A stretch of 64,000 nucleotides of DNA, taken from NCBI GenBank assembly GCA_965249955.1, contig OZ252261.1, positions 2,426,773-2,490,772 on the forward strand, in the 5' to 3' direction. Source of the stretch: Bacteroidia bacterium. Lineage in GTDB: Bacteria > Bacteroidota > Bacteroidia > UBA8524. Shown in pieces: positions 20,398-40,793 of the stretch (position 1 is its first letter; each line of letters starts with the position of its first letter). The translations under genes were made by a program, and so were the position numbers. The notes under the pieces were generated by a model. That model saw nothing but the letters and a program-made list of their open reading frames with translations. It did not search any database and was not told the origin of the DNA.

Positions 20398-20486
20398 ACT
20401 TAGTTATTTGTTATAAGTTATTGGTTTTTGCCTTAGAAGCGGCAAAGATAACTAATAACAGATTAAGAGGTGAGTAAAATAAAAAA

Positions 20487-20567
20487 GGCCTGTATCTCAC
20501 CGCTCAACTTTACGCCCTTGCTTCATTCCTGACCTGGGGGATTAAAAGGAGCTGGTAGTACAGACCC
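20487..20567 (-). ncRNA. ffs: Small bacterial SRP RNA (4.5S)
   Basis: Minus strand reads GGGTCTGTA...CCAGGTCA-GGAA-TGAAGCAAG...TACAGGCC: terminal stem plus the conserved domain IV motif with GGAA tetraloop, followed by a T-run. Confidence 0.88.
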
Positions 20568-20572
20568 GAGGG

Positions 20573-20604
20573 CAAATATACTACTGCAAATGGCTTAACA
20601 CAAA
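20573..20604 (-). promoter_or_regulatory. sigma70 promoter of ffs
   Basis: Minus strand TTTG - 20 nt - TATATTTG, immediately upstream of the SRP RNA. Confidence 0.75.
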
Positions 20605-27096: not shown

Positions 27097-27170
27097 GGTC
27101 CGGTAGTTCAGCTGGTTAGAATACGTGCCTGTCACGCACGGGGTCGCGGGTTCGAGTCCCGTCCGGACCG
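27097..27170 (+). tRNA. tRNA-Asp (GTC)
   Basis: Cloverleaf with acceptor GGTCCGG/CCGGACC, anticodon arm CGTGC-CT-GTC-AC-GCACG and T-loop TTCGAGT; CCA not encoded. Confidence 0.98.
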
Positions 27171-27178
27171 CTGAAATT

Positions 27179-28885: not shown

Positions 28886-29203
28886 TTATTTTACAAAACG
28901 GTTTACACTGCCCCAGCTTCCGCCATTGTGTACGTTGGTATAGCCTGCATTTTTAAGCATAGCTTTGGCCGAACCACTGCGCATACCTGATGCACAACAA
29001 GTGATAATGGGTTGTTCTTTGTTTTTAAATTTTTTAAGATTACCGCTCAATTGGTCAAGAGGTATGTTTAGCGATCCTTTTACGTGCCCACCTGCATACT
29101 CGCCTTTGGTGCGCACATCTACTATTACAGCGCCGTTGTTAATCAATTCGGCCATATCTACTTTTGGGCCTATACCCAATAGGTTTTTTATAAATTGTAT
29201 CAT
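28886..29203 (-). CDS. Single-domain rhodanese
   Basis: 'IVDVRT..EY..GHV.GS.NIPL', 'TCCASGMRS'. Confidence 0.92.
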   Translation of the reverse strand: MIQFIKNLLGIGPKVDMAELINNGAVIVDVRTKGEYAGGHVKGSLNIPLDQLSGNLKKFKNKEQPIITCCASGMRSGSAKAMLKNAGYTNVHNGGSWGSVNRFVK

Positions 29204-29222
29204 TTTGGTTGTTATCTGTTTA

Positions 29223-29290
29223 TTAGCCTTTAGCACTTAGCTTTTGGCTGTTAGCTAAGAGCTAAGAGCTAAAAGCTAACAGCTAAGTGC
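29223..29290. repeat. Heptamer tandem repeats in inverted arrangement (TAGCnnn / nnGCTAA)
   Basis: tagcctt-tagcact-tagcttt-tggctgt-tagc, then gagctaa-gagctaa-aagctaa-cagctaa; outer IR gcacttagc/gctaagtgc. Confidence 0.8.
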
Positions 29291-29296
29291 AACTCA

Positions 29297-29578
29297 TTAT
29301 ATTTTGCTTACTACATAGTTAACATCTAACCATGATCCACCGTTGGTACAGTCGATACCGTTTTGTTGTAAAAACATGGTTGCTTGACCGCTACGACCGC
29401 CTGATGCACAGCAAAGTACTATGTTTTTCATGTTTTTAAATTCATCTAAACGGTGGGGTACTTCGTTTAAGGGTATATTTACACTGCCGGCTACATTACC
29501 ACCCATAAACTCGGCAGGGGTGCGTACATCAATAATTGCGGCTTCGCCGTTTTTAATTAAAGAGATTACTTTTTCCAT
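29297..29578 (-). CDS. Single-domain rhodanese
   Basis: 'IIDVRTPAEF..GNV.GSVNIPL', 'LCCASGGRS'. Confidence 0.92.
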   Translation of the reverse strand: MEKVISLIKNGEAAIIDVRTPAEFMGGNVAGSVNIPLNEVPHRLDEFKNMKNIVLCCASGGRSGQATMFLQQNGIDCTNGGSWLDVNYVVSKI

Positions 29579-29620
29579 TTTACTATATGTGATTTTTTAA
29601 TTTATTTTAATGTTGAGCTA

Positions 29621-29772
29621 TTTTACACCCTCTCCGCCTCTCCTTTTTTAGGGAGAGAAGCCCACACGACCATTGCTTATAAGCCTTCGGCTATGTGCAG
29701 TAATGGTTATTTAACCATGACCTTGTGCGGCTGCTTCCCACTAATAAGGGGGAAAGACAAAGGGGTGTAAAA
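29621..29772. repeat. ~150-bp multi-hairpin palindromic intergenic element
   Basis: Terminal IR TTTTACACCC/GGGTGTAAAA with internal hairpins (ctctcc..ggagag, accattgc..gcagtaatggt, ttccc..ggg). Confidence 0.6.
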
Positions 29773-29789
29773 TCAATAGCATACACGAT

Positions 29790-31202
29790 TTATTTTACTG
29801 TTGTTGCACAAACAAATGGGGTGCAAGGCACTTCGGTTTCGCTAATGGCACTCATGCCGCCCTCTATGTTTATCATATTGTTGTAACCGCGTGCTTTTAG
29901 TATTGACGATGCAATAACCGAGCGGTAACCGCCTGCACAGTGCAGGTAAAATGGGGTATCTTTGGGGAAAGAAGCCATATTGTTGTTTATATAATCAAGG
30001 GCTATATTGGTAGCACCTTCTACGTGTTCGGCTTCGTATTCGCTTTGTTTACGTACATCAATTACGGTTAGCGGGTGTTGTGCATGACGGTGTGCAAACT
30101 CAAATGCTGATATAGAGGTAATACTGTCGGTTTCTTTGCCTTCAGCTTCCCAAGCGGCATAGCTGCCGTTTAAAAAGCCCAGTACATTATCGTAACCAAC
30201 GCGAGCAAGACGAGTTACTACTTCTTCTTCACGTCCGGGTTCGCAAACTAATAGCAGGTTTTGACGCACATCAGGTATTAAAGCACCTACCCAAGGGGCA
30301 AAATTACCGTCGATACCAATATTTATACTGTTGGGTATAAAGCCTTTAACAAAATGCTCGGGGTTGCGGGTATCTAATACCAGTGCACCAGTTTCATTAG
30401 CGGCTACTTCAAAAGCCTCTACCGATAGTGGAGTAGTACCGCGTTGCAATACTTCGCCAATAGCATCGTAACCTTCTTTGTTCATGCGAACGTTTTGAGG
30501 GAAATATGCAGGTGGAGGCAGCAAACCGTCGGTTACTTCTTTTACAAACTCTTCCTTGGTCATATTAGCACGTAGTGCATAGTTGGTTTGTTTTTGGTTG
30601 CCAATGGTTGATACGGTTTCGTCGCTCATGTTTTTACCACAAGCCGAACCTGCACCGTGTGCGGGGTATACTATTACATCATCACCCAAAGTCATTACTT
30701 TATTTCTTAGCGAATCGTATAGCAACTCTGCCAATTGCTCTTGAGTCATGCTTGCTGCTTTTTGAGCTAAGTCGGGGCGACCTACATCACCTATAAATAG
30801 GGTATCTCCTGTAAATAGTGAGTTTTCGTTACCCTTTTCGTCTTTCAGTAAATAGCAGCTCGATTCCATAGTATGCCCTGGTGTGTGTAACACTTTAAAG
30901 CTTACATCGCCCAGTTTAAATTCTTCGCCATCTGTTGCTACATAAGCATCAAACGATGGTTTTGCGGTGGGGCCATAAATTATTTTTGCACCCGTTGCTT
31001 TAGCCAAATCTATATGACCTGATACGAAATCGGCATGGAAGTGAGTTTCAAAAACGTATTTAATCTTCACACCGTCTTTTTCAGCCCTATCTATATAGGG
31101 TTGTATTTCGCGCAATGGGTCGATAATAGCGGCCTCATTGCCTGATGTAATGTAGTACGCGCCCTGTGCAAGGCAACCTGTATATATTTGTTCTATTTTC
31201 AT
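29790..31202 (-). CDS. MBL-fold persulfide dioxygenase-like hydrolase fused to rhodanese domains (CstB/Blh-like)
   Basis: 'ETHFHADFVSGH', 'HTPGHT', 'FTGDTLFIGDVGRPDL', 'PAHGAGSACG', then two rhodanese-like domains, the last with 'HCAGGYRS'. Confidence 0.9.
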   Translation of the reverse strand: MKIEQIYTGCLAQGAYYITSGNEAAIIDPLREIQPYIDRAEKDGVKIKYVFETHFHADFVSGHIDLAKATGAKIIYGPTAKPSFDAYVATDGEEFKLGDVSFKVLHTPGHTMESSCYLLKDEKGNENSLFTGDTLFIGDVGRPDLAQKAASMTQEQLAELLYDSLRNKVMTLGDDVIVYPAHGAGSACGKNMSDETVSTIGNQKQTNYALRANMTKEEFVKEVTDGLLPPPAYFPQNVRMNKEGYDAIGEVLQRGTTPLSVEAFEVAANETGALVLDTRNPEHFVKGFIPNSINIGIDGNFAPWVGALIPDVRQNLLLVCEPGREEEVVTRLARVGYDNVLGFLNGSYAAWEAEGKETDSITSISAFEFAHRHAQHPLTVIDVRKQSEYEAEHVEGATNIALDYINNNMASFPKDTPFYLHCAGGYRSVIASSILKARGYNNMINIEGGMSAISETEVPCTPFVCATTVK

Positions 31203-31312
31203 CGCAGTTAATATTTTATCTAAATTGTAATACAAAGGTCGGTATGTTTCAACCGCCGTTTGGGAACATTTGTTGGATAAGAAGATTTTTTTATAATAAA
31301 GCGCGTATGAAC

Positions 31313-31348
31313 AAAAAAGCCTCTTTAAGATATTCTTAAAGAGGCTTT
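31313..31348 (-). terminator. Terminator after 133-aa orphan gene
   Basis: aaagcctctttaaga-tat-tcttaaagaggcttt. Confidence 0.75.
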
Positions 31349-31368
31349 CTGTTAAAGGGATATGAGGT

Positions 31369-31770
31369 TTAATTTATATCGACAATTATATCAGGAGCTG
31401 CGAAGGTTAAGGAGAAAAGCCTGGGTATGCCCATACAATCGGTATAGGTGAAGTTTGGGGTTACTGCATCAAGTGTTATTGTATAAACCAATGCAGCAGG
31501 AGTACAAGAAAGATCGGAAAAGGTTATGACTACTGAGCTAAAGTTACCCATAAGGCAAGGCACAGGCTTTTGCATTTGTGTAGTGAAAGGAGGGAGAGTA
31601 AACGAAATGGGGCCGCATCCGCCTACATAATTAAAATCTACAGTGCCATTAGCAAGCGGGGTGTTGTTGTTTACTATTAAGCCATCGTTAATTAATGTTA
31701 CTTGTGCTGATAGATTGCCGCCAATGGCAACCATAGCAATAAGAATTAAAAGTTTTAGTGTTGATTTCAT
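31369..31770 (-). CDS. Hypothetical secreted beta-rich protein (4 Cys)
   Basis: Clear signal peptide (..GNLSA|Q), own terminator, no recognisable family. Confidence 0.6.
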   Translation of the reverse strand: MKSTLKLLILIAMVAIGGNLSAQVTLINDGLIVNNNTPLANGTVDFNYVGGCGPISFTLPPFTTQMQKPVPCLMGNFSSVVITFSDLSCTPAALVYTITLDAVTPNFTYTDCMGIPRLFSLTFAAPDIIVDIN

Positions 31771-31972
31771 AAAGCAATTTTTTAGTTTATAATCAAGTTT
31801 ACTAATTTCTTTATGTAAAGAGTAGTTTATTTTAACTTTTTCGATGAAAATGATGGGGTAATCTATTTCAGTGTTTTGAAATTGAGCAAGGGCAGTTTGA
31901 TAACTTATTGTTCGACTCAGCTAACTATTACAGCTCACAAGGGGGACAATGCGCTGCAATGATTTTAGAAAT

Positions 31973-32590
31973 CTATTCTTTTTTCAGCACGAACCTATAG
32001 CCGTTTGCCATTTTGTGAATTGCCTTTCTTTTCTTTATACGCCATTTTTCATTCACAATAGCCCTATATGAAAAGAGATTGAGCCTTATTTTGTAAATAT
32101 TTGAGCGACTCTCTTTAGGGCTAAAAACAATTTCTCTATAAATGTATTGTATGAAAATAGTGTCAGGTGGATATTCAACAGGTATTGAAATTCTGCCATC
32201 TTCAAGTACATAGCCTGTTATTACTTGTTTATTCTTGAGAATAATTTTGTACAAAGCATACTCCAAAGGAGAACTGTCTAAGTCTGTAACAAATAGTTCT
32301 ATTCTGTTATTATCAACCGTGTCGGAAAATAATTCTTCGACTGTTTCGCCACTATTATCTGAATTAAGGATTATATCATTATGGTCTTTTATCCATTTCC
32401 CAAAAATTTTCTCATATCCCGTGCATGTAGATTCTTCAAAAAGAAAAGTAGAATCGTCCTTTATCGTAAGGGCTGCACTATAAAAAGGAACATTTTTTTC
32501 GTAAACTCCAACATAGCTGCGTTTTGCACATGAAGTGAGTAATACTAATACTATTATAAGAGCATAATATTTTTGGATAAGCCTCAACAT
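31973..32590 (-). CDS. Hypothetical lipoprotein
   Basis: Lipobox LLTSC; 'L.I..DSTF.F.......G.W' lipocalin-like start followed by an Ig-like segment; AT-rich. Confidence 0.6.
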   Translation of the reverse strand: MLRLIQKYYALIIVLVLLTSCAKRSYVGVYEKNVPFYSAALTIKDDSTFLFEESTCTGYEKIFGKWIKDHNDIILNSDNSGETVEELFSDTVDNNRIELFVTDLDSSPLEYALYKIILKNKQVITGYVLEDGRISIPVEYPPDTIFIQYIYREIVFSPKESRSNIYKIRLNLFSYRAIVNEKWRIKKRKAIHKMANGYRFVLKKE

Positions 32591-32643
32591 ACCTTATAAA
32601 CGTTTGTAGTTTATTAAGGGATGTAACTTAGTCATTAAATAAT

Positions 32644-33420
32644 TTACAATACCAACTCCTTCACAATAATAAACACGCCCATAGCTAGAATAAACCAACC
32701 CAAAAGAGGTTTCAGTTTCGCACCGCTAATAAATTTTGAAAGGTAAACTCCCAACAATAACCCAACGATAGAAATACCACTAAACCCTATAAGAAAAACC
32801 CAATCGGGTTGTGTATTGGGTAAATCGGCAGCAAAACCAGTAAGAGCATTTAGGGAAATAATTAATAATGATGTACCTACGGCTTGCTTAATATCTTGTT
32901 TCAGTACCAAAACCAAAGCGGGTACTATTAAAAAACCTCCTCCGGCACCCAACAAACCTGTTATCATTCCTGTAAAAAAACCTGTAATTATCAAACGGGT
33001 GCGAGATGGCGATGTATTGGTTTCTGCTACTTGGGCTGATTTTTTTAACATTCCTCTGGCCGCTACCAGCATAAACACTGCAAATAGCAGCATTAGTGCA
33101 AGGCTTTTGCTCAGGGTAAAAGCATTTGTGGTAAGTATGGTTTCAGGTATTAGGGGCAATAACCAACTGCGCACCAACACTACTGATACCAGTGAGGGAA
33201 GCGCAAAGGTGATGGCTGCTTTAAAGTTGACCATCTTTTTTAGTCCATAGTTAACTACCCCTGCCAGTGACGTGATGCCGACAATAAATAACGAGTAGTT
33301 AATGGCCGTGGCAGGCAAAACACCGCCAATATATACCAGCACAGGCACGGTGAGTATACTGCCTCCGCTGCCCATAAGCCCAAGAGTAATACCAATGGCT
33401 AATGCAAAAACGTATTCCAT
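32644..33420 (-). CDS. TauE/SafE family sulfite exporter
   Basis: 'LGLMGSGGSILTVPVL' and repeated 'GLLGAGGGFLIVPAL', 'AVGTSL'. Confidence 0.93.
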   Translation of the reverse strand: MEYVFALAIGITLGLMGSGGSILTVPVLVYIGGVLPATAINYSLFIVGITSLAGVVNYGLKKMVNFKAAITFALPSLVSVVLVRSWLLPLIPETILTTNAFTLSKSLALMLLFAVFMLVAARGMLKKSAQVAETNTSPSRTRLIITGFFTGMITGLLGAGGGFLIVPALVLVLKQDIKQAVGTSLLIISLNALTGFAADLPNTQPDWVFLIGFSGISIVGLLLGVYLSKFISGAKLKPLLGWFILAMGVFIIVKELVL

Positions 33421-33474
33421 AAGAGCAAAGGTAGGGCTAGTATGAAGAATGCTTGGTGATAATTGTTACACAAG

Positions 33475-34095
33475 CTAAAGCAACTCAATGCTGTTACGCC
33501 CTAGTTTTACCAAACCTTTTTGTTCCATAGTGCGTAGCAAGCGGCTAATAGCTTCGCGGTGGGTGTGTAATTCGTCGGCTATTTGTTGGTGGGTTATTTC
33601 TAGTGTTTTGGTGTTTAATGCTTTGCAACGTTCGGTAATGTAATGTAGCAATTGTTTATCCATGTGCCCAAAGGCAATTAAGTCAACTACTTGCATCAAC
33701 TCGGCAAAACGGTTGTTGTAGTTGTTGCTCACATAAGCCTTCCACTCAGGATATTTAAACCAATCTTCGGTTTGTTTCACCGGTATTTGCAGTACTTCTG
33801 TATCGTCTTCGGCAACAGCTTTTATCATACTTTTTTTGCCTGCTTGGCAACAAGTTAACGACATAGCACAGGTTTGCCCCGGGTACAGGTGGTATAAAAA
33901 CACTTCACGTCCGTCGTCGTCTTGTCGTAAAATGCGTATGCAGCCTTTTAATACTATGGGGATGAATAGAACATCATCGCCGGGTTCTATAAGAAATTCT
34001 TCTTTTTCAAATTGTTTTAACCTGCCAAATCTGTCTATTTCAGCAATTAAAGCGGGGTCGCTAAAAATTTGAGTGCCTTTATCCGTTTGTTGCAT
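33475..34095 (-). CDS. Crp/Fnr family transcriptional regulator
   Basis: cNMP-binding fold ('LY.L.PGQTCAMS..CC') and C-terminal HTH 'THQQIADELHTHREAISRLL'. Confidence 0.92.
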   Translation of the reverse strand: MQQTDKGTQIFSDPALIAEIDRFGRLKQFEKEEFLIEPGDDVLFIPIVLKGCIRILRQDDDGREVFLYHLYPGQTCAMSLTCCQAGKKSMIKAVAEDDTEVLQIPVKQTEDWFKYPEWKAYVSNNYNNRFAELMQVVDLIAFGHMDKQLLHYITERCKALNTKTLEITHQQIADELHTHREAISRLLRTMEQKGLVKLGRNSIELL

Positions 34096-34188
34096 AAACT
34101 TAAGGCAAAATAAAGGCTTTATAGGGTTAAAAGTACCATAAACAAGATTTTAAGGAGGCTTTGCACAGTATTTATATTACTAATAAAA

Positions 34189-34218
34189 CAATAGAGGCCG
34201 CATTTGCGGCCTCTATTG
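34189..34218 (-). terminator. Terminator after response regulator
   Basis: caatagaggccgca-tt-tgcggcctctattg. Confidence 0.75.
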
Positions 34219-34245
34219 TATAACTATTTAGGGTTAATGTATGAA

Positions 34246-34902
34246 TTACATAATTTTTACCACACCATTTTTTATGGCAAAAATTACCAAACCCACACGA
34301 GTACGAACGCTTATTTTTTGGAATAGCGAATCACGGTAACCGTCAACTGTGCGTACGCTTACATTCATCAACTCAGCTATTTCTTTGTACGATAAATCGT
34401 TGCAAATGTGCTCTAAAAAGGTAATCTCGCGTTGGCTTAGTTTATCCAGTATATCCGAGTTTTTATCCCAACGGGTATGGTAGTTTATAGAGTTTGCCAT
34501 TGTTTTAGATACATACTCAGAGTAGTAATACCCTTTGTTGTGCACATCATCAATAGCAGTAAAAAGCTCCTCAGGGTCAGCATCTTTCAGCACATATCCT
34601 CTTGCACCTAGTTTTATCATTTTTATAATTGCAGCTTCATTGTCTTCAACGGTTACAGCAATTATTCGCACCATAGGATAGTCTTTGCGTAGTTTGCCTG
34701 CTACCGTAAAACCATCTTGCCCTTGCATACTAATGTCAAGCAAAACCACTTCAGGTTCTTGGCCTGAGCGCAGATAGTCAAAAAACTCAGCCCCACTTTC
34801 AGCTTCAAAAATTATTTCAAACTTTTCTTCGGTTTCAAGAAGATTGGCTAAAGCCCTTCTAAAAAGTTTATGGTCATCAACCAAAGCAATTTTTATAGGC
34901 AT
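34246..34902 (-). CDS. NarL/LuxR family response regulator
   Basis: Receiver 'VDDH...VLLDISM...DG...GARGYVLKD' and LuxR HTH 'LSQRE..FL..IC...SYKEIA..M.VS.RTV'. Confidence 0.95.
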   Translation of the reverse strand: MPIKIALVDDHKLFRRALANLLETEEKFEIIFEAESGAEFFDYLRSGQEPEVVLLDISMQGQDGFTVAGKLRKDYPMVRIIAVTVEDNEAAIIKMIKLGARGYVLKDADPEELFTAIDDVHNKGYYYSEYVSKTMANSINYHTRWDKNSDILDKLSQREITFLEHICNDLSYKEIAELMNVSVRTVDGYRDSLFQKISVRTRVGLVIFAIKNGVVKIM

Positions 34903-34906
34903 ATAT

Positions 34907-35743
34907 TTAATTGTTAGTAGGGTGTTTTAATAAAGTATTTTTGGTTGGGGCAGTAATCTTAATTATAGTGCCATTGTCTTCACTACTTTCCAAAGTTAAT
35001 ACACCACCAATAATTTTTACCCTATTCTTCATATTTCTTAATCCGTTGCCGCTAAGTACAGCACTTCTTTTTTCAATATTTTTTATACTAAACCCCTTGC
35101 CATCGTCAGTTACAGTAAGTATCAAATCATCAGGAAAGTAGTGTAGCTCAACCGTCAAATTTTTGGCTTCAGCATGTTTTATGGCATTGTTTAGCAGTTC
35201 TTGTGCAATTCTAAAAAGTACAATTTGTATTCGTCCGTCAAACTTGTATGGAGTTCCTACGGTTCTTAGGTTAGTGGTTAAAAAGCCGGTTCGGTTTACT
35301 TTATCCAGCTCAATCTTTAATGATTCTTCTAATCCAAAGTTAGAGATAAAATCTTGCGAAAGCGTTTTGGTAATGCTTCGCATATCGTTTATAACGCCTG
35401 AAACTTGTACTTTCAGTTCGTCTATTATTTCAGTTTCTTTTTCGGCATTTCCGCCAACCATTCTGCCAAGTTTAACAAGGTTTAGCTTAACTACGGAGAG
35501 CATTTGACCAAGGTTATCGTGTATTTCGGCAGCTACACTATTAAGCACTTGTTCTTGTAGCTCAATTTTCGATTTTAACATTTCGTTGTTAAAATCTTCG
35601 CGCATTTTTTGCACTTGTCGTTTGTGTTTGTATGCCCTACGTTGGTATACAAACAAAAACAACACAATAAAGCTAACTAGCAGCAGCAGTATTATTGTTA
35701 CTATTACAATAAGTTGAATTATATCCGATTCTTTTGTTTGCAA
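34907..35743 (-). CDS. HisKA_3 histidine kinase with one N-terminal TM and no sensor domain
   Basis: 'EIHDNLGQ' H-box, 'LFRIAQELLNNAIKHA', 'DDGKGF', 'GNGLRNM'. Confidence 0.93.
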   Translation of the reverse strand: MQTKESDIIQLIVIVTIILLLLVSFIVLFLFVYQRRAYKHKRQVQKMREDFNNEMLKSKIELQEQVLNSVAAEIHDNLGQMLSVVKLNLVKLGRMVGGNAEKETEIIDELKVQVSGVINDMRSITKTLSQDFISNFGLEESLKIELDKVNRTGFLTTNLRTVGTPYKFDGRIQIVLFRIAQELLNNAIKHAEAKNLTVELHYFPDDLILTVTDDGKGFSIKNIEKRSAVLSGNGLRNMKNRVKIIGGVLTLESSEDNGTIIKITAPTKNTLLKHPTNN

Positions 35744-36366
35744 AGTATTCCTATTGTGAAAAGTACATTTTGAAGAATATTCAAAACAGAATTAATCGTC
35801 CATATCGAAGTCCGCAGACTAGGAGGTAAATGTATATATTTATGAAAATAGTTAAACAAAATTATAGTGCCAACACTATAAAATAAAATACCGGTACTAA
35901 TCCAAAACATAGGCACCTTTGTTAGGTTTGAGTGTTCGATGCCTTTAATAAGCTGATAGAAATATAAAAGTGTAGTAACAGCAACTGTGAAACCACCTAC
36001 CGTTGTTGTTAAAGTGTTAAAATTATAAAGCCCGTTAATAACAAGTATATCAAGAAAATAAACAATAAGGGTAATGACTGAAAATGATAGAACAACATTT
36101 TTTAATTTTTTCTCTTGAAAAACAGAATAGTAAAGATAAAAATAAACGGAGTACTCAATTATAGCGAGTATATTATATATATGAAGATTTTGTTGCCCAA
36201 AAATGGCTAAATAAACACATACACTTTCTTTTATAAGCGTTATAAGTAAATAAAGAGAAAAGAGCCTTAATCTTGTATCAAGGCTCTTAAAATTCATTAA
36301 ACTTCCAGCAATAGGCAGTATTACTGAAAAGGTAGAAACATATGAAAATAAATATGTTGAGGCCAA
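35719..36366 (-). CDS. Uncharacterised 7-TM membrane protein (putative receptor)
   Basis: Seven hydrophobic segments in 215 aa; 'N..IYN', 'P.FW..TG.L.Y', 'N..LN' motifs; 3' end overlaps the kinase start. Confidence 0.75.
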   Translation of the reverse strand: MASTYLFSYVSTFSVILPIAGSLMNFKSLDTRLRLFSLYLLITLIKESVCVYLAIFGQQNLHIYNILAIIEYSVYFYLYYSVFQEKKLKNVVLSFSVITLIVYFLDILVINGLYNFNTLTTTVGGFTVAVTTLLYFYQLIKGIEHSNLTKVPMFWISTGILFYSVGTIILFNYFHKYIHLPPSLRTSIWTINSVLNILQNVLFTIGILCKQKNRI

Positions 36367-36369
36367 TTT

Positions 36370-36720
36370 TTAGCTGTTTAGAGGGCTTCCGTTGGTATCG
36401 CATTGCATTGGGCATGGCGACCCGTGATTTAATACATGATTGTTTGCTGCCAATTGGTCATTTTCGCTTTCGTCAGCACCTACAAGCACTAGTGATAACT
36501 CTTGCCATTTTTTCCCATCTTCGCTCACTTCAACAGCTCCAAAATAACAACGGATACCCATACACTCGGGTTGATTAAGTATGGCTTGTAACTTTTCTTT
36601 GCCAAAAAAAATAGCTTTACGTTTTCTGTCGTTCGTCAAAAAACTATCTCTATAGTCTTTTGTCATTGTGCTTCCCTCCGAAATTGTGATAAAAGTTCCT
36701 TCTGTTCCATTAAATGCCAT
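36370..36720 (-). CDS. Uncharacterised small protein with C-terminal PCPxxC motif
   Basis: 116 aa, no signal peptide; 'FFGKEKL..IL.QPECMGIRCYFG...LVLVGAD...GSPCPMQC'; first gene of the operon. Confidence 0.8.
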   Translation of the reverse strand: MAFNGTEGTFITISEGSTMTKDYRDSFLTNDRKRKAIFFGKEKLQAILNQPECMGIRCYFGAVEVSEDGKKWQELSLVLVGADESENDQLAANNHVLNHGSPCPMQCDTNGSPLNS

Positions 36721-37049
36721 AAGTTTAAGTTTTTTTAAGTTAACACTAAATTAATACGGCTAAATTAGTTATTATATGTAGTAAAGTGAAAAACTGTATG
36801 TTACCGTTTAATCACCTGTTTTATATATTTTTGATTTACAGTTGTTTATGATATTTTTTTGAAAAAAAATGGGTTTTTACACTTGTGTTTATACGGTGAA
36901 AAAACGGTGTTTATATAAGCTAAAATTGTATTCTGATAGTATAAGAAGCTGATTTTTTCGAGATTAATTCATCGAATAGATAAGTGCAGAGTATAAAAAT
37001 TTGTGTGCAGTATTTATATTCGTGTTTTACACTAAAAAAAATACTACAC

Positions 37050-40000
37050 ATGCGTAAACATTTTTTACTATTTGTTCTGCTTTTTACATCACTATGGTCA
37101 GTCGCCCAACAGGCGAAGCTAGATGAGGGTTGGGAAGCATTTAATACTAACAACCCAAAAAAGGCAATTAAGCTTTTTACAGAAGCAGCATCAAATGATG
37201 CTACGGCTGAAGAAGCACTGCTTGCCCTTACTCTTTTAAACTCTGAAGAGGGAAACACTGTTGAGGCGATGGAAAACTTTAACCAGTTTTATAAAAAATC
37301 GGCCAATCCATATCCATATATGGATGTGTTTTTCTATACAGCAGGTGTTGCCTATGGTAATGGCGAGAAAAGTAAAGACCGCCTAAAATACCTTCAAGCA
37401 TTTTTAAAAGACCCAAAACTACCCGGTACCTTAGCTGCCAAAATTCACTCAACATTGGGTCATCACTACGAAACTATTGGTAAGTTTAAAGATGCCAATA
37501 AAGAGTTTGCTCAAATTGGCTCAATAACCAATTGGATGTCTGTAGGTTCTTTTGAAAATATTTCGGCAAGCGGTTACGATAAAGGGTACGAACCAATTGA
37601 TAATGCATCTGTAACCAAAACATTCAAAAATAAATACGGAGCCAATGTAAATTGGTTTACTTTAAAAGATTCTCGCACCGATAAATGGGTGGATAACGAG
37701 TACTATTTTTATGCAGGTAACTCAATTATCTATTCACAAACATTTGTCAATTCTCCTATCGAACAAAAAGTACAATTTAGAATAGGTGTTTCAGGTTCAT
37801 TAAAAATGTGGTTAAACGATAACCTTATTGCTAGTGAGATTGAAGAACGTAATAATGGTACCGATAGCTACTGGGTAAGCGTAACGCTGAAAAAAGGCTA
37901 TAACCGCATTTTGATACAAATTGGTGAAAGTGATGCCAACAACTCAAACTTTATGTTACGTATTACCGATGACAACGGTAATAATATACAAGGACTGACT
38001 TTTGATGATAAAAAAGACCAAGTATACGATAAGGGCAGTGTAGAGTTTGCCCCCATACCACAAGGAACTCTTGCTTTTTTTGAACAGTTGGTAAAAGACA
38101 AACCAACCTTTTTTAATCATATATTATTGGCCAAGCTATATACTAACCTTGATATGCGTTTGTTGGCTCGCAAAACTTTAAAGAAAGCTGAGGAGATGGC
38201 TCCCAAAAGCAGCTACATCCAGCTTAAACTGGTACAAGTATACCAAAGCGAAGGTAACCGTACTGCAATTGCAAAAGTGGTAGAATGGTTAAAGGATAAT
38301 GATAAAGAGAATATTGTGTCGTTAGATTTGTTTTTTGACGAAGCAATTGAGAACGAAAACTATGAAAAAGCAGACTCGTTGCTAGAAGCATTACAAAGTA
38401 AACTAGGGGCTGGAGCTGAAAGTGTATACGAGAAAAAAATGTCGTTATACGGTGCTCAAGAAAAAAATGAATTGCTAATAAAAATTATAGATGAGGCCTA
38501 TGATAACTACCCTAAAAACTACTTGTTTGTATTGTATAAATCGTATTTAGAGCAAGGCAAAAAAAATCATTCCGGTGCAATGAAAGTGATGGAGAAGTAT
38601 AATAAGAAAACATACAATACTTCTGCAATGAAACGCCTTGCAAGCATGTATTTTGAAAACTCAAAAGTTGCTGCGGGTCTTGAATTGTACAAGGAAATGA
38701 TAAAAAATGACCCTATTGCAGTAGGCATATACAGTGAGTTGGCTGATATATATGTGCAATTGCGTCAGTATGATGCTGCCATTGAGTTGATGGATCAGGC
38801 GATTGACATAGCACCTTATATAGGTAAGTATTGGAGTATGCGCGCCAAATGCTATGCCGAGCAAAACAAAGAAACTGTAGCCAAAACAAATTATAGAAGA
38901 GCTATTGAACTAACGCCAACCTATTTTGATGCCCGCCGCAAACTGCGTAAACTTAACGGCAAGAAAGAAGATATATTTTCAAACTTCGACGAAACTGATG
39001 TATATGCTGCATTTGCAAAAGCAGGTAAAGCCGAAGATTATCCCGATGATAATAGCGTAATACTTGTAAACTCTGTACAAAGAGTAGTATACAGTGATGG
39101 CGTATCAGAAGAAAAACATACACTTGTAGCAAAGGTATTTAATGCGGCAGGTATAGACGACTGGAAAGAGTATGGTATATCGTACTATGGCTCGCAAAAT
39201 GTAACTATCGAAAAAGTAGAAGTGCTAAAAGCTAACGGTTCTAAACTTGAAGCCGAACGTAATGGTGGTAATATAGTATTTACCAATCTTGAAGCAGGCG
39301 ATGGTGTGCACATTACTTATAAAGTAGAAAACTACCAAAGCGGAAAATTAGCGCCTTACTTTACAGATAAACACTATTTTGATTTGTTCTACCCTGTAGT
39401 AAAATCATCATACTCATTACTAATACATCCTGATATTAAATTCAAACATCAATTTACTAACGGTGGGTTTGAGCCTAAGAAAGAGGAAAGAGAAGGGTTT
39501 GATTACTACCACTGGGAGAAAAACGATGTTGCTGCCCTTAAAGGCGAATCGTTCATGTCGGAAATCACAGATTTTGGTGAGGTATTAGATATATCATCAT
39601 TCCCTGATTGGAAGTTTATCTCAAACTGGTATTCTGATTTAGCAAAAACCAAAGCAAAATCTGATTATGAAGTAAAAGAAATAGCCTCTGAGATTTTTAA
39701 AAATGCAGAGGGTTTATCTAAAGTAGAAAAAGTAAAATTGGTGCACAACTACATTGTAGAAAATGTGCGTTATAGCTCAGTTTCATTCCGCCAAAGTGGT
39801 TTAATACCACAAAAAGCATCAAAAGTGATAAACACTCGCGTGGGAGACTGTAAAGACGTATCGACACTTTTTGTTGCCCTTTGCCGCGAGGCAGGTATTG
39901 ATAGCGCTCGCCTAGTACTAATAAACACCCGCGATAATGGTAAAAAAGACCTGTTGTTACCCTCGATAGATTTTAACCATTGCATAGGAAATATTACTGC

Positions 40001-40793
40001 CGATGGACAAGAGTATTTTGTAGAACTTACTTCGGATAAAAACGGGTTTGGAACATTCCCAAATACCCTTAAAAATGCGTTTGCTTTAAAAATATACGAT
40101 GAAAACGAGCCTACAAGTGAAGAGCCTTTTTTCCTTGCTCCAAAAACAAAAATACCCGATAACATTATCAGAAATGTAGATGTAGAGTTTAAAGGCAAAG
40201 AGATGTTGATTGATATAAAATCACTTAAAACAGGTGATTGGGCAAGCGATATGCGCTACAGATATGCTGATATACCAGAAAGCGAAAGGCGTAAAAAACT
40301 GTTACAAAGCCTTTCGGGTGATAATGCCAGTGTAAAACTAAACTCATTTAGTTTTGAAAGACTAGATGAAATTAGCGACTCTTTAAACTATACCTATAAC
40401 TATAACTTGGGCAATGCTACTACTGTTATTACGGGGCTTAATATTTTTAGTCTTCCTTGGGCTGATAAAATTTCAAGCATCTCGTTTATGTCAAACGAAG
40501 AGCGTAAATACCCTATTAACTTTTGGGATTATTTAGAGTTTGATAAAGCCAAAGAAACCATAAGCATATCATTTCCTACAGGTACAAAATTAGCCGAAAT
40601 GCCTAAAAACGTTAGCCTGTCGTGCAGTGCAGCCGATTATAAAATTACCTATAAAATGGAAGGAACCAAGTTGGTTGCAGTACGCGAAATGATTGTGAAA
40701 AAAGATGTTGTTAACCCAAATGAATACGATGAATTGAAAAGCTTTTTTGAGAAAGTGGTTGAAGAAGATACCCGCCAATTGGCTTTTAAATAG
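37050..40793 (+). CDS. Exported TPR + DUF3857 + transglutaminase-like protein
   Basis: Signal peptide from ATG 37050; TPR-like helices; DUF3857-like region; 'VRYSS', 'GDCKD', 'FNHCI'. Confidence 0.85.
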   Translation: MRKHFLLFVLLFTSLWSVAQQAKLDEGWEAFNTNNPKKAIKLFTEAASNDATAEEALLALTLLNSEEGNTVEAMENFNQFYKKSANPYPYMDVFFYTAGVAYGNGEKSKDRLKYLQAFLKDPKLPGTLAAKIHSTLGHHYETIGKFKDANKEFAQIGSITNWMSVGSFENISASGYDKGYEPIDNASVTKTFKNKYGANVNWFTLKDSRTDKWVDNEYYFYAGNSIIYSQTFVNSPIEQKVQFRIGVSGSLKMWLNDNLIASEIEERNNGTDSYWVSVTLKKGYNRILIQIGESDANNSNFMLRITDDNGNNIQGLTFDDKKDQVYDKGSVEFAPIPQGTLAFFEQLVKDKPTFFNHILLAKLYTNLDMRLLARKTLKKAEEMAPKSSYIQLKLVQVYQSEGNRTAIAKVVEWLKDNDKENIVSLDLFFDEAIENENYEKADSLLEALQSKLGAGAESVYEKKMSLYGAQEKNELLIKIIDEAYDNYPKNYLFVLYKSYLEQGKKNHSGAMKVMEKYNKKTYNTSAMKRLASMYFENSKVAAGLELYKEMIKNDPIAVGIYSELADIYVQLRQYDAAIELMDQAIDIAPYIGKYWSMRAKCYAEQNKETVAKTNYRRAIELTPTYFDARRKLRKLNGKKEDIFSNFDETDVYAAFAKAGKAEDYPDDNSVILVNSVQRVVYSDGVSEEKHTLVAKVFNAAGIDDWKEYGISYYGSQNVTIEKVEVLKANGSKLEAERNGGNIVFTNLEAGDGVHITYKVENYQSGKLAPYFTDKHYFDLFYPVVKSSYSLLIHPDIKFKHQFTNGGFEPKKEEREGFDYYHWEKNDVAALKGESFMSEITDFGEVLDISSFPDWKFISNWYSDLAKTKAKSDYEVKEIASEIFKNAEGLSKVEKVKLVHNYIVENVRYSSVSFRQSGLIPQKASKVINTRVGDCKDVSTLFVALCREAGIDSARLVLINTRDNGKKDLLLPSIDFNHCIGNITADGQEYFVELTSDKNGFGTFPNTLKNAFALKIYDENEPTSEEPFFLAPKTKIPDNIIRNVDVEFKGKEMLIDIKSLKTGDWASDMRYRYADIPESERRKKLLQSLSGDNASVKLNSFSFERLDEISDSLNYTYNYNLGNATTVITGLNIFSLPWADKISSISFMSNEERKYPINFWDYLEFDKAKETISISFPTGTKLAEMPKNVSLSCSAADYKITYKMEGTKLVAVREMIVKKDVVNPNEYDELKSFFEKVVEEDTRQLAFK

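Follow-up and report, generated by a model that had tools for sequence, protein, structure and literature searches.

The small gene at positions 36370..36720 (minus strand) of the window, that is, of the whole 64,000-nucleotide stretch of DNA analysed here, opens a four-gene signalling module, in which it is followed by genes for a membrane protein with about seven predicted transmembrane helices (hereafter TM7), a histidine kinase and a response regulator. The small gene, TM7, the kinase and usually the regulator are linked in about 30 loci, and two of the four parts, the small protein and TM7, represent unnamed protein families. In marine RNA the small gene looks to be transcribed far above the TM7 and kinase genes. 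We tentatively propose, with somewhat less than even confidence, that the small protein is made in excess under autoregulation and serves the TM7-kinase pair as a co-sensor or feedback modulator.

The gene appears as a single ORF of 116 aa in the ORF list of the window. Its product (MAFNGTEG...CMGIRC...PCPMQCDTNGSPLNS; 12.8 kDa, pI 4.9) contains cysteines at positions 53, 58, 103 and 107. The ORF begins at the earliest possible start codon downstream of an in-frame stop, so that a hidden signal peptide further upstream is impossible; since the N-terminus is also non-hydrophobic, the protein carries neither a Sec nor a lipoprotein signal. Met1-Ala2-Phe3 is invariant in 13/13 close homologues, which confirms the assigned start. 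Together with more than 1000 distant homologues and coverage by RNA, these 13 sequences confirm that the ORF is genuine and not a chance one. The leaderless 116-aa protein with four cysteines reported in the preliminary description of this DNA is thus borne out by the ORF list, the N-terminus, the homologues and the RNA contigs.

The 13 close homologues (45–99% identity) were retrieved by a word-indexed search. An exhaustive profile search yielded 1872 cluster representatives at E≤1e-3, of which 660 remained at E≤1e-10, while the indexed profile search returned 1026 clusters, every one unnamed or annotated as 'hypothetical protein' and none with a Pfam domain. Pfam matches were likewise found in 0/110 family members, and searches of Pfam, NCBIfam, PADLOC and PHROGs gave no match for either the small protein or TM7. 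PDB profile searches with the small protein produced only noise (G-alpha, a tail tubular protein and MnmG, all at E>0.1), and full-text literature searches turned up no account of the family or the module. Record titles of family members name Bacteroidia, Crocinitomicaceae, Fluviicola, Flavobacteriales, Hymenobacter, Fulvivirga and Ignavibacteriales; in the loci and names examined the family is limited to the Bacteroidota/Ignavibacteria group, a few of the taxon labels resembling binning errors.

The family signature reads M-[AS]-F-x-G-x-E-G ... G-[ILV]-R-x-Y ... P-C-P-x-x-C ... N-x-L-N-S. The window protein matches the family profile at E = 4.6e-39 and carries the F-x-G-x-E-G, G-[ILV]-R-x-Y and P-C-P-x-x-C motifs together with the cassette of TM7 and single-TM kinase. 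Most members consist of a single domain of 100–116 aa, with M-[AS]-F-x-G-x-E-G starting at residue 1. A second architecture is a tandem of two domains (210–295 aa), and it is on tandem proteins that an N-terminal lipoprotein-type signal, composed of a charged start, a hydrophobic stretch and a cysteine followed by acidic residues, was recognized in at least 13 of the best 164 proteins.

Residue conservation was assessed on 217 domains aligned to the family profile. G55, R57 and Y59 are retained in 96–98% of them, and F3, G5, E7, I11, T20, R24, G40, L48, Q50 and D88 are strongly conserved as well; the best-conserved residues of the family are therefore other than the cysteines of the C-terminal motif. 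P102-C103-P104-x-x-C107 and N112-x-L114-N115-S116 nevertheless rank among the top conserved positions, with P104 unchanged throughout the 110-sequence alignment. Of 188 aligned domains, 170 carry both Cys103 and Cys107, 12 carry neither and 6 carry only one; the pair behaves as a single unit that is lost jointly. Where it is lost, the cysteines are replaced by G/S...S and the Pro-Pro between them is retained. Such joint loss would be compatible with a disulfide or with a bidentate metal site. Because about 8% of the domains lack both cysteines and many domains of tandem proteins lack the pair (tandem proteins hold on average only 1.2–1.3 CPxxC motifs, many having the pair in one domain only), thiol chemistry is not the core function of the family; the Cys pair seems to modulate that function rather than to define it. 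The same average weakens the idea that a Zn(Cys)4 site joins two domains and that tandem proteins are pseudo-dimers of this kind.

These alignments bear directly on the preliminary description, which had recognized two cysteine motifs and had asked whether the tail varies strongly around fixed cysteines, as in a signal, or is invariant, as in a catalytic unit. Its PCPxxC motif stands. Its CMGIRC motif does not, as C53 occurs in about 60% of the domains, regardless of the presence of the Cys103/Cys107 pair, and C58 in 7%; lack of cysteine conservation, which it had named as grounds for abandoning its reading, is thus real for C58 and partly so for C53, but not for the CPxxC pair. The tail is conserved, and variation among the close homologues is concentrated instead at the tip of a β-hairpin (residues 62–76). 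The N-x-L-N-S ending is found in 59% of the leaderless single-domain members, 43% ending exactly in LNS, versus 0/13 of the lipoprotein forms. In all, the observation stands and its interpretation is upheld in part: the ORF and the CPxxC pair of that description survive, its second motif does not, and, as discussed below, its ideas of peptide release and sulfane-sulfur sensing find little support.

An AF2 model computed from 110 sequences reached a pLDDT of 91.9 and a pTM of 0.80. A model from a shallow alignment of 14 sequences was poor (pLDDT 69), and Foldseek searches with it were meaningless. The better model comprises a helix (13–27), a strand (36–38), a second helix (41–48), a long β-hairpin (55–67/70–82) and a short strand (101–103), after which the CPxxC tail is modelled as coil with a pLDDT of about 80. 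Foldseek with this model returned no hit at E<1e-3, the top TM-scores being 0.27 against the PDB and 0.33 against BFVD. The small protein is accordingly modelled as a compact α+β domain without a detectable relative of known structure. It is not a recognizable CxxC oxidoreductase of the thioredoxin fold: neither Pfam nor the PDB gave a sequence match, the order of elements differs, Foldseek returned no thioredoxin, and the CxxC expected at the start of helix 1 in thioredoxins has its counterpart here in the modelled C-terminal coil. An HMA metallochaperone of the CopZ/MerP type was also rejected. The HMA fold is β-α-β-β-α-β with MxCxxC in the first loop; the small protein has no HMA match in Pfam, and its motif lies at residues 103–107 of 116.

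The three genes that follow are on the same strand and tightly packed. TM7 (215 aa; 35719..36366, minus) starts 3 nt past the stop of the small gene. The kinase ORF (34907..35743, minus) shares 25 nt with the TM7 gene; its product has a single TM helix at the N-terminus and HisKA_3 and HATPase_c domains (Pfam E-values 3.9e-08 and 2.9e-15) but lacks a sensor domain, and the NarL/LuxR-type regulator (34246..34902, minus) combines a receiver (Response_reg, 5.3e-26) with a GerE helix-turn-helix (3.3e-12). With these domains, the downstream genes qualify as a two-component system of the HisKA_3/NarL type. A strong intrinsic-terminator-like hairpin (34188..34219, minus; 14 bp including 8 G-C pairs, followed by a T tract) lies 27 nt past the regulator stop and likely ends the four-gene operon, leaving the Crp, TauE and persulfide-dioxygenase genes beyond it as a separate unit.

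The order small protein, TM7, kinase, regulator recurs in virtually all of 21 GTDB loci, gathered with a 14-sequence alignment, and in loci obtained by exact protein look-up. All-against-all clustering of the neighbour proteins from 22 loci left only four recurrent families: the small protein (22/22), TM7 (19/22), the kinase (19/22) and the regulator (15/22); loci in which TM7 was not detected show a gap of corresponding size. No peptidase, ABC or PCAT exporter, maturase or other transporter is conserved beside the small gene in these 22 loci. Most leaderless loci place the start of TM7 between 12 nt downstream of the small gene and 4 nt inside it, and in most loci the TM7 and kinase ORFs overlap by 22–37 nt. 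A radical-SAM/SPASM gene adjoins the cassette at a single genomic locus (L004/L010, sampled again as L005). The small protein as a RiPP precursor with a radical-SAM/SPASM maturase was discarded, the maturase gene being missing from the window and from all loci but that one.

Distant members preserve the arrangement of domain protein, TM7 or a gap of its size, and kinase, with differences in the first protein and in the class of kinase. L030 encodes two leaderless tandem proteins, TM7 (E 1e-44) and a single-TM PAS hybrid kinase, and L034 a leaderless tandem protein, a 221-aa protein and a PAS hybrid kinase. In L031 a lipoprotein tandem protein precedes TM7 (E 2e-37), a HisKA_3 kinase and a regulator; L033 has a lipoprotein tandem protein, a gap, a HisKA_3 kinase and a regulator. 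L027 combines a lipoprotein tandem protein and a leaderless single-domain protein with two multi-TM proteins and a kinase. The lipoprotein member of L029 has neither TM7 nor a kinase alongside.

TM7 itself has no named homologue and no soluble domain. Hydropathy and the positive-inside rule, counted by hand, predict seven helices with the N-terminus outside and the C-terminus inside; the predicted inner loops hold 11 Lys/Arg versus 2 outside, and every loop is at most 13 residues long. The conserved polar residues are located within the membrane or close to it (E47, E71, N59/N60, S193, N196 and N200), other conserved positions being P18, P152, F154, W155 and W189. An alignment of 20 TM7 proteins contains no conserved His or Cys. 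Judged by its sequence, TM7 thus looks more like a receptor or ion-binding bundle than like an AgrB-like peptidase, and a role as an AgrB-like protease or exporter was rejected, as the catalytic residues are not conserved. For the kinase the N-terminus is predicted outside, followed by one helix that leads directly into HisKA_3. We also considered a frameshifted TM7-kinase fusion, which would form an 8-TM kinase. As the predicted topology has TM7 ending inside and the kinase starting outside, the catalytic domain of such a fusion would sit outside the cell; the TM7/kinase overlap conserved in many loci opposes it as well.

Eight marine RNA runs, five declared as metatranscriptomes and three guessed to be RNA, contain the small gene. 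Its ORF is covered end to end by RNA contigs of at least 99% identity in three of them and partly in five more. In each of the three (X25, X26, X27) a single contig of 372–373 nt spans 36362/4 to 36734/5; X28, X31 and X32 share the 36362 end, and X29 extends to 36283. Contigs of DNA runs (X3, X10, X15) cross both 36362 and 36735 unbroken, so these boundaries belong to the RNA and are not breaks of the assembly graph. The small gene reaches a contig depth of 2–11x, against 0 for TM7 and the kinase in 8/8 runs and 2–2.8x for the regulator in two of the eight. Contig depth is a crude and poor measure of expression, yet in at least five studies the small gene stands out from its neighbours in the same way. 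Within a 20-kb neighbourhood the small gene alone is spanned end to end by an RNA contig, the other deep signal being tRNA-Asp. Its transcript ends at the 3' side within the interval from 36362 to about 36255, and the contigs may under-sample structured RNA. Such a large mRNA excess speaks against a structural subunit in a simple 1:1 ratio and would be explained equally well by an effector or a released product.

At the 5' side, the RNA contigs of three runs start at 36734/36735, leaving a short 5' UTR (36721..36735, minus). Eleven nucleotides upstream of this boundary lies TAATTTAG (36746..36753, minus), a candidate Bacteroidetes-type -7 box whose TTTAG core is conserved in an alignment of five homologous loci. 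The Bacteroidetes -7 consensus is TAnnTTTG, and we infer the promoter function of TAATTTAG from its resemblance to this consensus. Further upstream, ACACCGTTTTTTCACCGTAT (36891..36910, minus) is an imperfect copy of a 7-6-7 palindrome, ATACCGT-N6-ACGGTAT, which occupies the equivalent place in 5/5 aligned upstream regions of homologous operons. A second, inverted copy of the motif, GGTGATTAAACGGT (36803..36816, minus), is found also in L006. Scanning the 64-kb window for the palindrome returned sites only at the promoter of the operon itself, at chance level. The palindrome is likely a binding site of the operon's own NarL/LuxR-type regulator, which would make the module autoregulated.

Downstream of the small gene, a conserved, terminator-like RNA stem-loop of 12 bp followed by a U-rich tract (36260..36288, minus) lies 82–110 nt past the small-gene stop, within the first cytoplasmic-loop codons of TM7. 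It is the last of three, two more stem-loops being located at about 36293–36350, and the 141 nt past the stop fold much better than shuffled sequences (z = -4.24). The stem-loop is conserved in five loci whose TM7 proteins are about 41–50% identical; 4/12 of its pairs show compensatory double changes among these loci, achieved through synonymous codon changes. In the alignment 96.7% of the cells are paired, the covariation score was matched by 1/500 shuffles, and slid controls collapse. More broadly, a perfect hairpin of at least 10 bp occurs within 140 nt after the small gene in 13/27 loci, whereas control windows taken from those loci contain one at a rate of 4.5% (binomial p = 3e-11, with the loci partly non-independent). 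The hairpins of these 13 loci are at non-homologous positions and several are classic terminators; a search of Rfam gave no known RNA family at the hairpin of the window. We regard the latter as a candidate intra-operon attenuator or terminator that would set a high ratio of small protein to sensor. A covarying hairpin within a coding region would be a clean example of a candidate attenuator fixing the stoichiometry of an operon.

In the mechanism that we propose, the small protein would be the soluble first-gene product of a signalling module that further comprises TM7, the single-TM HisKA_3 kinase and the NarL-type regulator, and it would be made in excess from a promoter under the module's own regulator. 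It would bind the TM7-kinase complex and shift the balance between kinase and phosphatase activity. Binding would be set by the state of the domain, namely by a ligand on the conserved E7/R24/Q50/R57/Y59/D88 surface, by the redox or metal state of Cys103-Cys107, or by both. TM7 and the kinase have no soluble sensor domain, which points to a co-sensor or feedback modulator as the role of the small protein. That CPxxC would act as a redox, metal or structural unit of a partner of the TM7-kinase pair, as the preliminary description had suggested in part, fits the unitary behaviour of the two cysteines and the linkage in about 30 loci.

The main tension in this proposal is one of compartment: the lipoprotein relatives must act outside the cytoplasm, while the window protein has no export signal. 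Lipoprotein relatives occupy the same slot of the operon, and the predicted topology of TM7 is unchanged (that of L031, from a lipoprotein-type cassette, is the same by loop-charge count). Both observations count against a co-sensor, and they imply that a single, one-sided contact surface cannot hold family-wide. They also put in doubt the earlier placement of the protein at the cytoplasmic face of the membrane protein. Under the co-sensor proposal, the lipoprotein-type relatives would take on that role on the periplasmic side of the membrane.

It is also conceivable, if rather unlikely, that the small protein is not a part of the sensor but the main output of the module. The two-component system would then rely on TM7 to detect an insult to the membrane or envelope, and the small protein would be a protective or sequestering protein that binds a metal, an electrophile or a toxic ligand through CPxxC and its polar surface. 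Feedback would in that case operate solely through removal of the stimulus, like LiaIH before liaGFSR; each of these details is no likelier than the output role as a whole. A first gene followed by an attenuator, with mRNA far above that of the sensor genes, is what such an arrangement would look like, and existence of the domain in both leaderless and exported lipoprotein form would be natural for a protective binding domain. The CxxC domains of MerP and CopZ provide a precedent for leaderless and exported versions. The lipoprotein member of L029, with neither TM7 nor a kinase beside it, speaks for an output as well. Against it stand the near-obligate link to TM7 and a single-TM kinase, kept even with the PAS hybrid kinases of L030 and L034, and the very tight spacing between the small gene and TM7, which together suggest a role in signalling itself. 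In addition, the top conserved residues differ from the Cys pair on which binding would depend, and the window offers no further candidate regulator box.

More improbable still is a released signal, in which the small protein or its C-terminal peptide would exit the cell and be sensed by the TM7-kinase pair of the cell that made it or of cells nearby. Lysis or some other route would release the leaderless forms, and Sec the lipoprotein forms, a pair of routes we find no more probable. In a variant that we consider equally doubtful, the folded domain or the CPxxC...NxLNS tail would be the cognate ligand of a seven-helix receptor signalling sideways in the membrane to the single-TM kinase. If true, this would be a Bacteroidota-specific, protein-based autoinducing circuit built from wholly unrecognised families, the lipoprotein versions being its cell-surface or contact form. 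The layout (an over-expressed first gene, an attenuator, a receptor kinase, a regulator and what looks like an autoregulatory box) is characteristic of structural genes for pheromones and bacteriocins, and exported lipoprotein relatives do exist. In the N-out/C-in model, TM7 has clusters of conserved Asn in an outer loop (N59/N60) and the seventh helix (N196/N200), and the restriction of NxLNS to leaderless forms could mark a recognition or export tag. However, that tail is conserved family-wide without pherotype-like variation, and it ends a well-folded acidic domain of 12.8 kDa that is conserved over its full length. A released signal would have to cross the outer membrane twice, and neither a conserved peptidase, ABC/PCAT exporter or maturase nor AgrB-like catalytic residues in TM7 are available to process or export it, the radical-SAM/SPASM gene being confined to its single locus. 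The disulfide-cyclised C-terminal peptide that the preliminary description had envisaged as a released product finds little support for the same reasons, with no conserved His or Cys in TM7 and no conserved processing or export gene.

Sensing of sulfane sulfur or persulfide in connection with the persulfide dioxygenase-rhodanese, TauE and Crp genes, which the preliminary description had raised as a secondary hypothesis, is most improbable: only the proximity of those genes in the window (29790–34095) and the presence of a Cys pair speak for it, whereas the strong terminator at 34219–34188 stands between the operons, sulfur genes recur beside 0/22 homologous loci, about 8% of domains do without the Cys pair, and the protein does not resemble the known persulfide sensors, which bind DNA.

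Few signalling inputs are known in Bacteroidota, although these bacteria are prominent in the sea, in soil and in the gut. The module described here is widespread, its small gene is transcribed in the sea, and the predicted fold of the small protein is without match. Should the small protein prove to be a redox-, metal- or ligand-dependent modulator, the module would represent a new class of accessory-protein-dependent two-component sensor, and a large block of 'hypothetical proteins' would gain a name and a testable role.

Several known systems share parts of this design. The AgrBDCA unit likewise consists of four genes, the first for a small product and the others for a polytopic membrane protein, a kinase and a regulator, but AgrD is about 46 aa long with a variable core, versus a conserved folded domain of 116 aa here, the catalytic His and Cys of AgrB have no counterpart in TM7, and the kinase and regulator are of the HPK10 and LytTR types rather than HisKA_3 and NarL. 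A pheromone or bacteriocin with a double-glycine leader and a PCAT was rejected, there being no GG-type leader and, in the 22 loci, no C39-peptidase ABC transporter. Membership among the persulfide regulators CstR, SqrR and BigR was rejected too, as the small protein has no such DNA-binding domain, sulfur genes are not conserved nearby and a terminator intervenes.

In the envelope-stress systems LiaFSR and VraUTSR of Firmicutes, a small or accessory protein, a membrane accessory, a sensor-less HisKA_3 kinase and a NarL-type regulator are encoded in a comparable gene order. There, too, sensing is delegated to a membrane partner and the operon is autoregulated, here by way of a candidate site. 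There is, however, no similarity in sequence or fold, the phylum is Bacteroidota, TM7 has about seven helices and no soluble C-terminal domain of the LiaF type, unlike LiaF/VraT, and the kinase has one TM helix. UhpC-UhpB-UhpA similarly employs a separate polytopic membrane protein as the receptor for a HisKA_3 kinase and a NarL-type regulator, and UhpB is the second-best NCBIfam match of the window kinase, far below the family cut-off; but UhpC is a 12-TM MFS protein, UhpB is itself polytopic and a soluble third partner is absent. Such a partner is found in NreA-NreB-NreC of Staphylococcus, where the operon starts with the gene for a small cytoplasmic co-sensor and also encodes a HisKA_3 kinase and a NarL-type regulator. 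NreA, in contrast, is a GAF domain, which was not found in the window protein or in 110 family members, NreB is soluble with its own Cys4 Fe-S PAS sensor, and a membrane partner is lacking.

The logic proposed here is akin to that of CpxP-CpxA, PspA-PspBC, NlpE-CpxA and NreA-NreB and unlike that of a pheromone precursor. In the first three, and in RcsF-IgaA-RcsCDB, a soluble or lipoprotein accessory made in excess informs a membrane sensor or exerts feedback on it; NlpE even uses a CXXC motif. The resemblance is one of logic only; there is no homology, and a signal peptide is missing from the window protein. With all homology and domain tests negative, membership in LiaFSR, UhpABC, NreABC, Cpx or Rcs is rejected; by analogy, the module appears to work like accessory-protein-dependent two-component systems while belonging to none of those compared. 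The Rcs chain, running from a lipoprotein through a polytopic membrane protein and a kinase to a GerE-type regulator, is the chain that the L031 and L033 cassettes would form.

The ORF of the multi-TM protein of the cassette (TM7) and that of the histidine kinase behind it overlap by 22-37 nt, always 1 modulo 3, both in the window, where the overlap spans 35719-35743, and at the homologous loci L003, L006, L008, L009, L017-L019, L021, L023-L025, L030-L032 and L034 of other genomes. The window kinase ORF as called begins with a TTG codon, and no ATG is found within its first 46 codons. Further upstream on the same minus strand, an RNA hairpin lies within the TM7 ORF itself (36260-36288), and equivalent sites are present in L006-L009. 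The codon changes that keep this hairpin are synonymous and compensatory across the window and these four loci; the region is protein-coding, and the same bases encode both the stem and the loop 1 peptide K-S-L-x-x-x-L-R-L of TM7.

A further observation concerns the start of the small CPxxC-domain protein gene. An estuary metagenome (DNA run X3) contains a second, unrelated contig of 3.9 kb, the sole match of which to the window is a stretch of 36 nt (36697-36732) that covers the first eight codons of the small gene (MAFNGTEG) together with 12 nt of the 5' UTR. This match suggests that the start of the gene is conserved at the nucleotide level in another locus or organism.

Divergent from the cassette, on the plus strand, lies a gene for a 1269-aa protein (36984-40793). 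Only the closest relatives (L001/L007 and L006) keep this gene next to the cassette; the L001 relative of the protein possesses TPR, DUF3857 and transglutaminase-core domains. At position 37034, within the first 17 codons of this ORF as called from GTG 36984, all four DNA runs compared over the region carry one base fewer than the window. The real start of the ORF is likely to be the downstream MRKHFLL..., a signal-peptide-like stretch, and the missing base probably reflects either length variation or a fault in the assembly, without consequence for the protein.

On its other side, the cassette is separated by a terminator from a sulfur cluster (28886-34095, minus strand), and no linkage between the two was found in other genomes. 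One of its genes (29790-31235) codes for a persulfide-dioxygenase-like metallo-beta-lactamase that carries two fused rhodanese domains, and a small ORF at 29297-29578 appears rhodanese-like by sequence. The cluster also includes a TauE/SafE exporter at 32644-33420 and, at 33475-34095, a regulator of the Crp/FNR type. The window further contains a Bacteroidales-type small SRP RNA (20482-20574, minus strand) and a tRNA-Asp (GTC; 27097-27171, plus strand). The tRNA accounts for RNA contigs of very high depth that match in part around 27100-27170.

In one homologous cassette, a radical-SAM/SPASM gene is convergent to the regulator (L004/L010, 8382-9401, minus strand; L005, 4207-5160) and two additional NarL-type regulators lie upstream; neither feature was present at the other loci examined. 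Some cassettes possess two consecutive family members: a pair of tandem proteins in L030 (723-2268), and a lipoprotein tandem protein accompanied by a leaderless single-domain protein in L027 (878-2245). Exported and leaderless forms can therefore share one operon.
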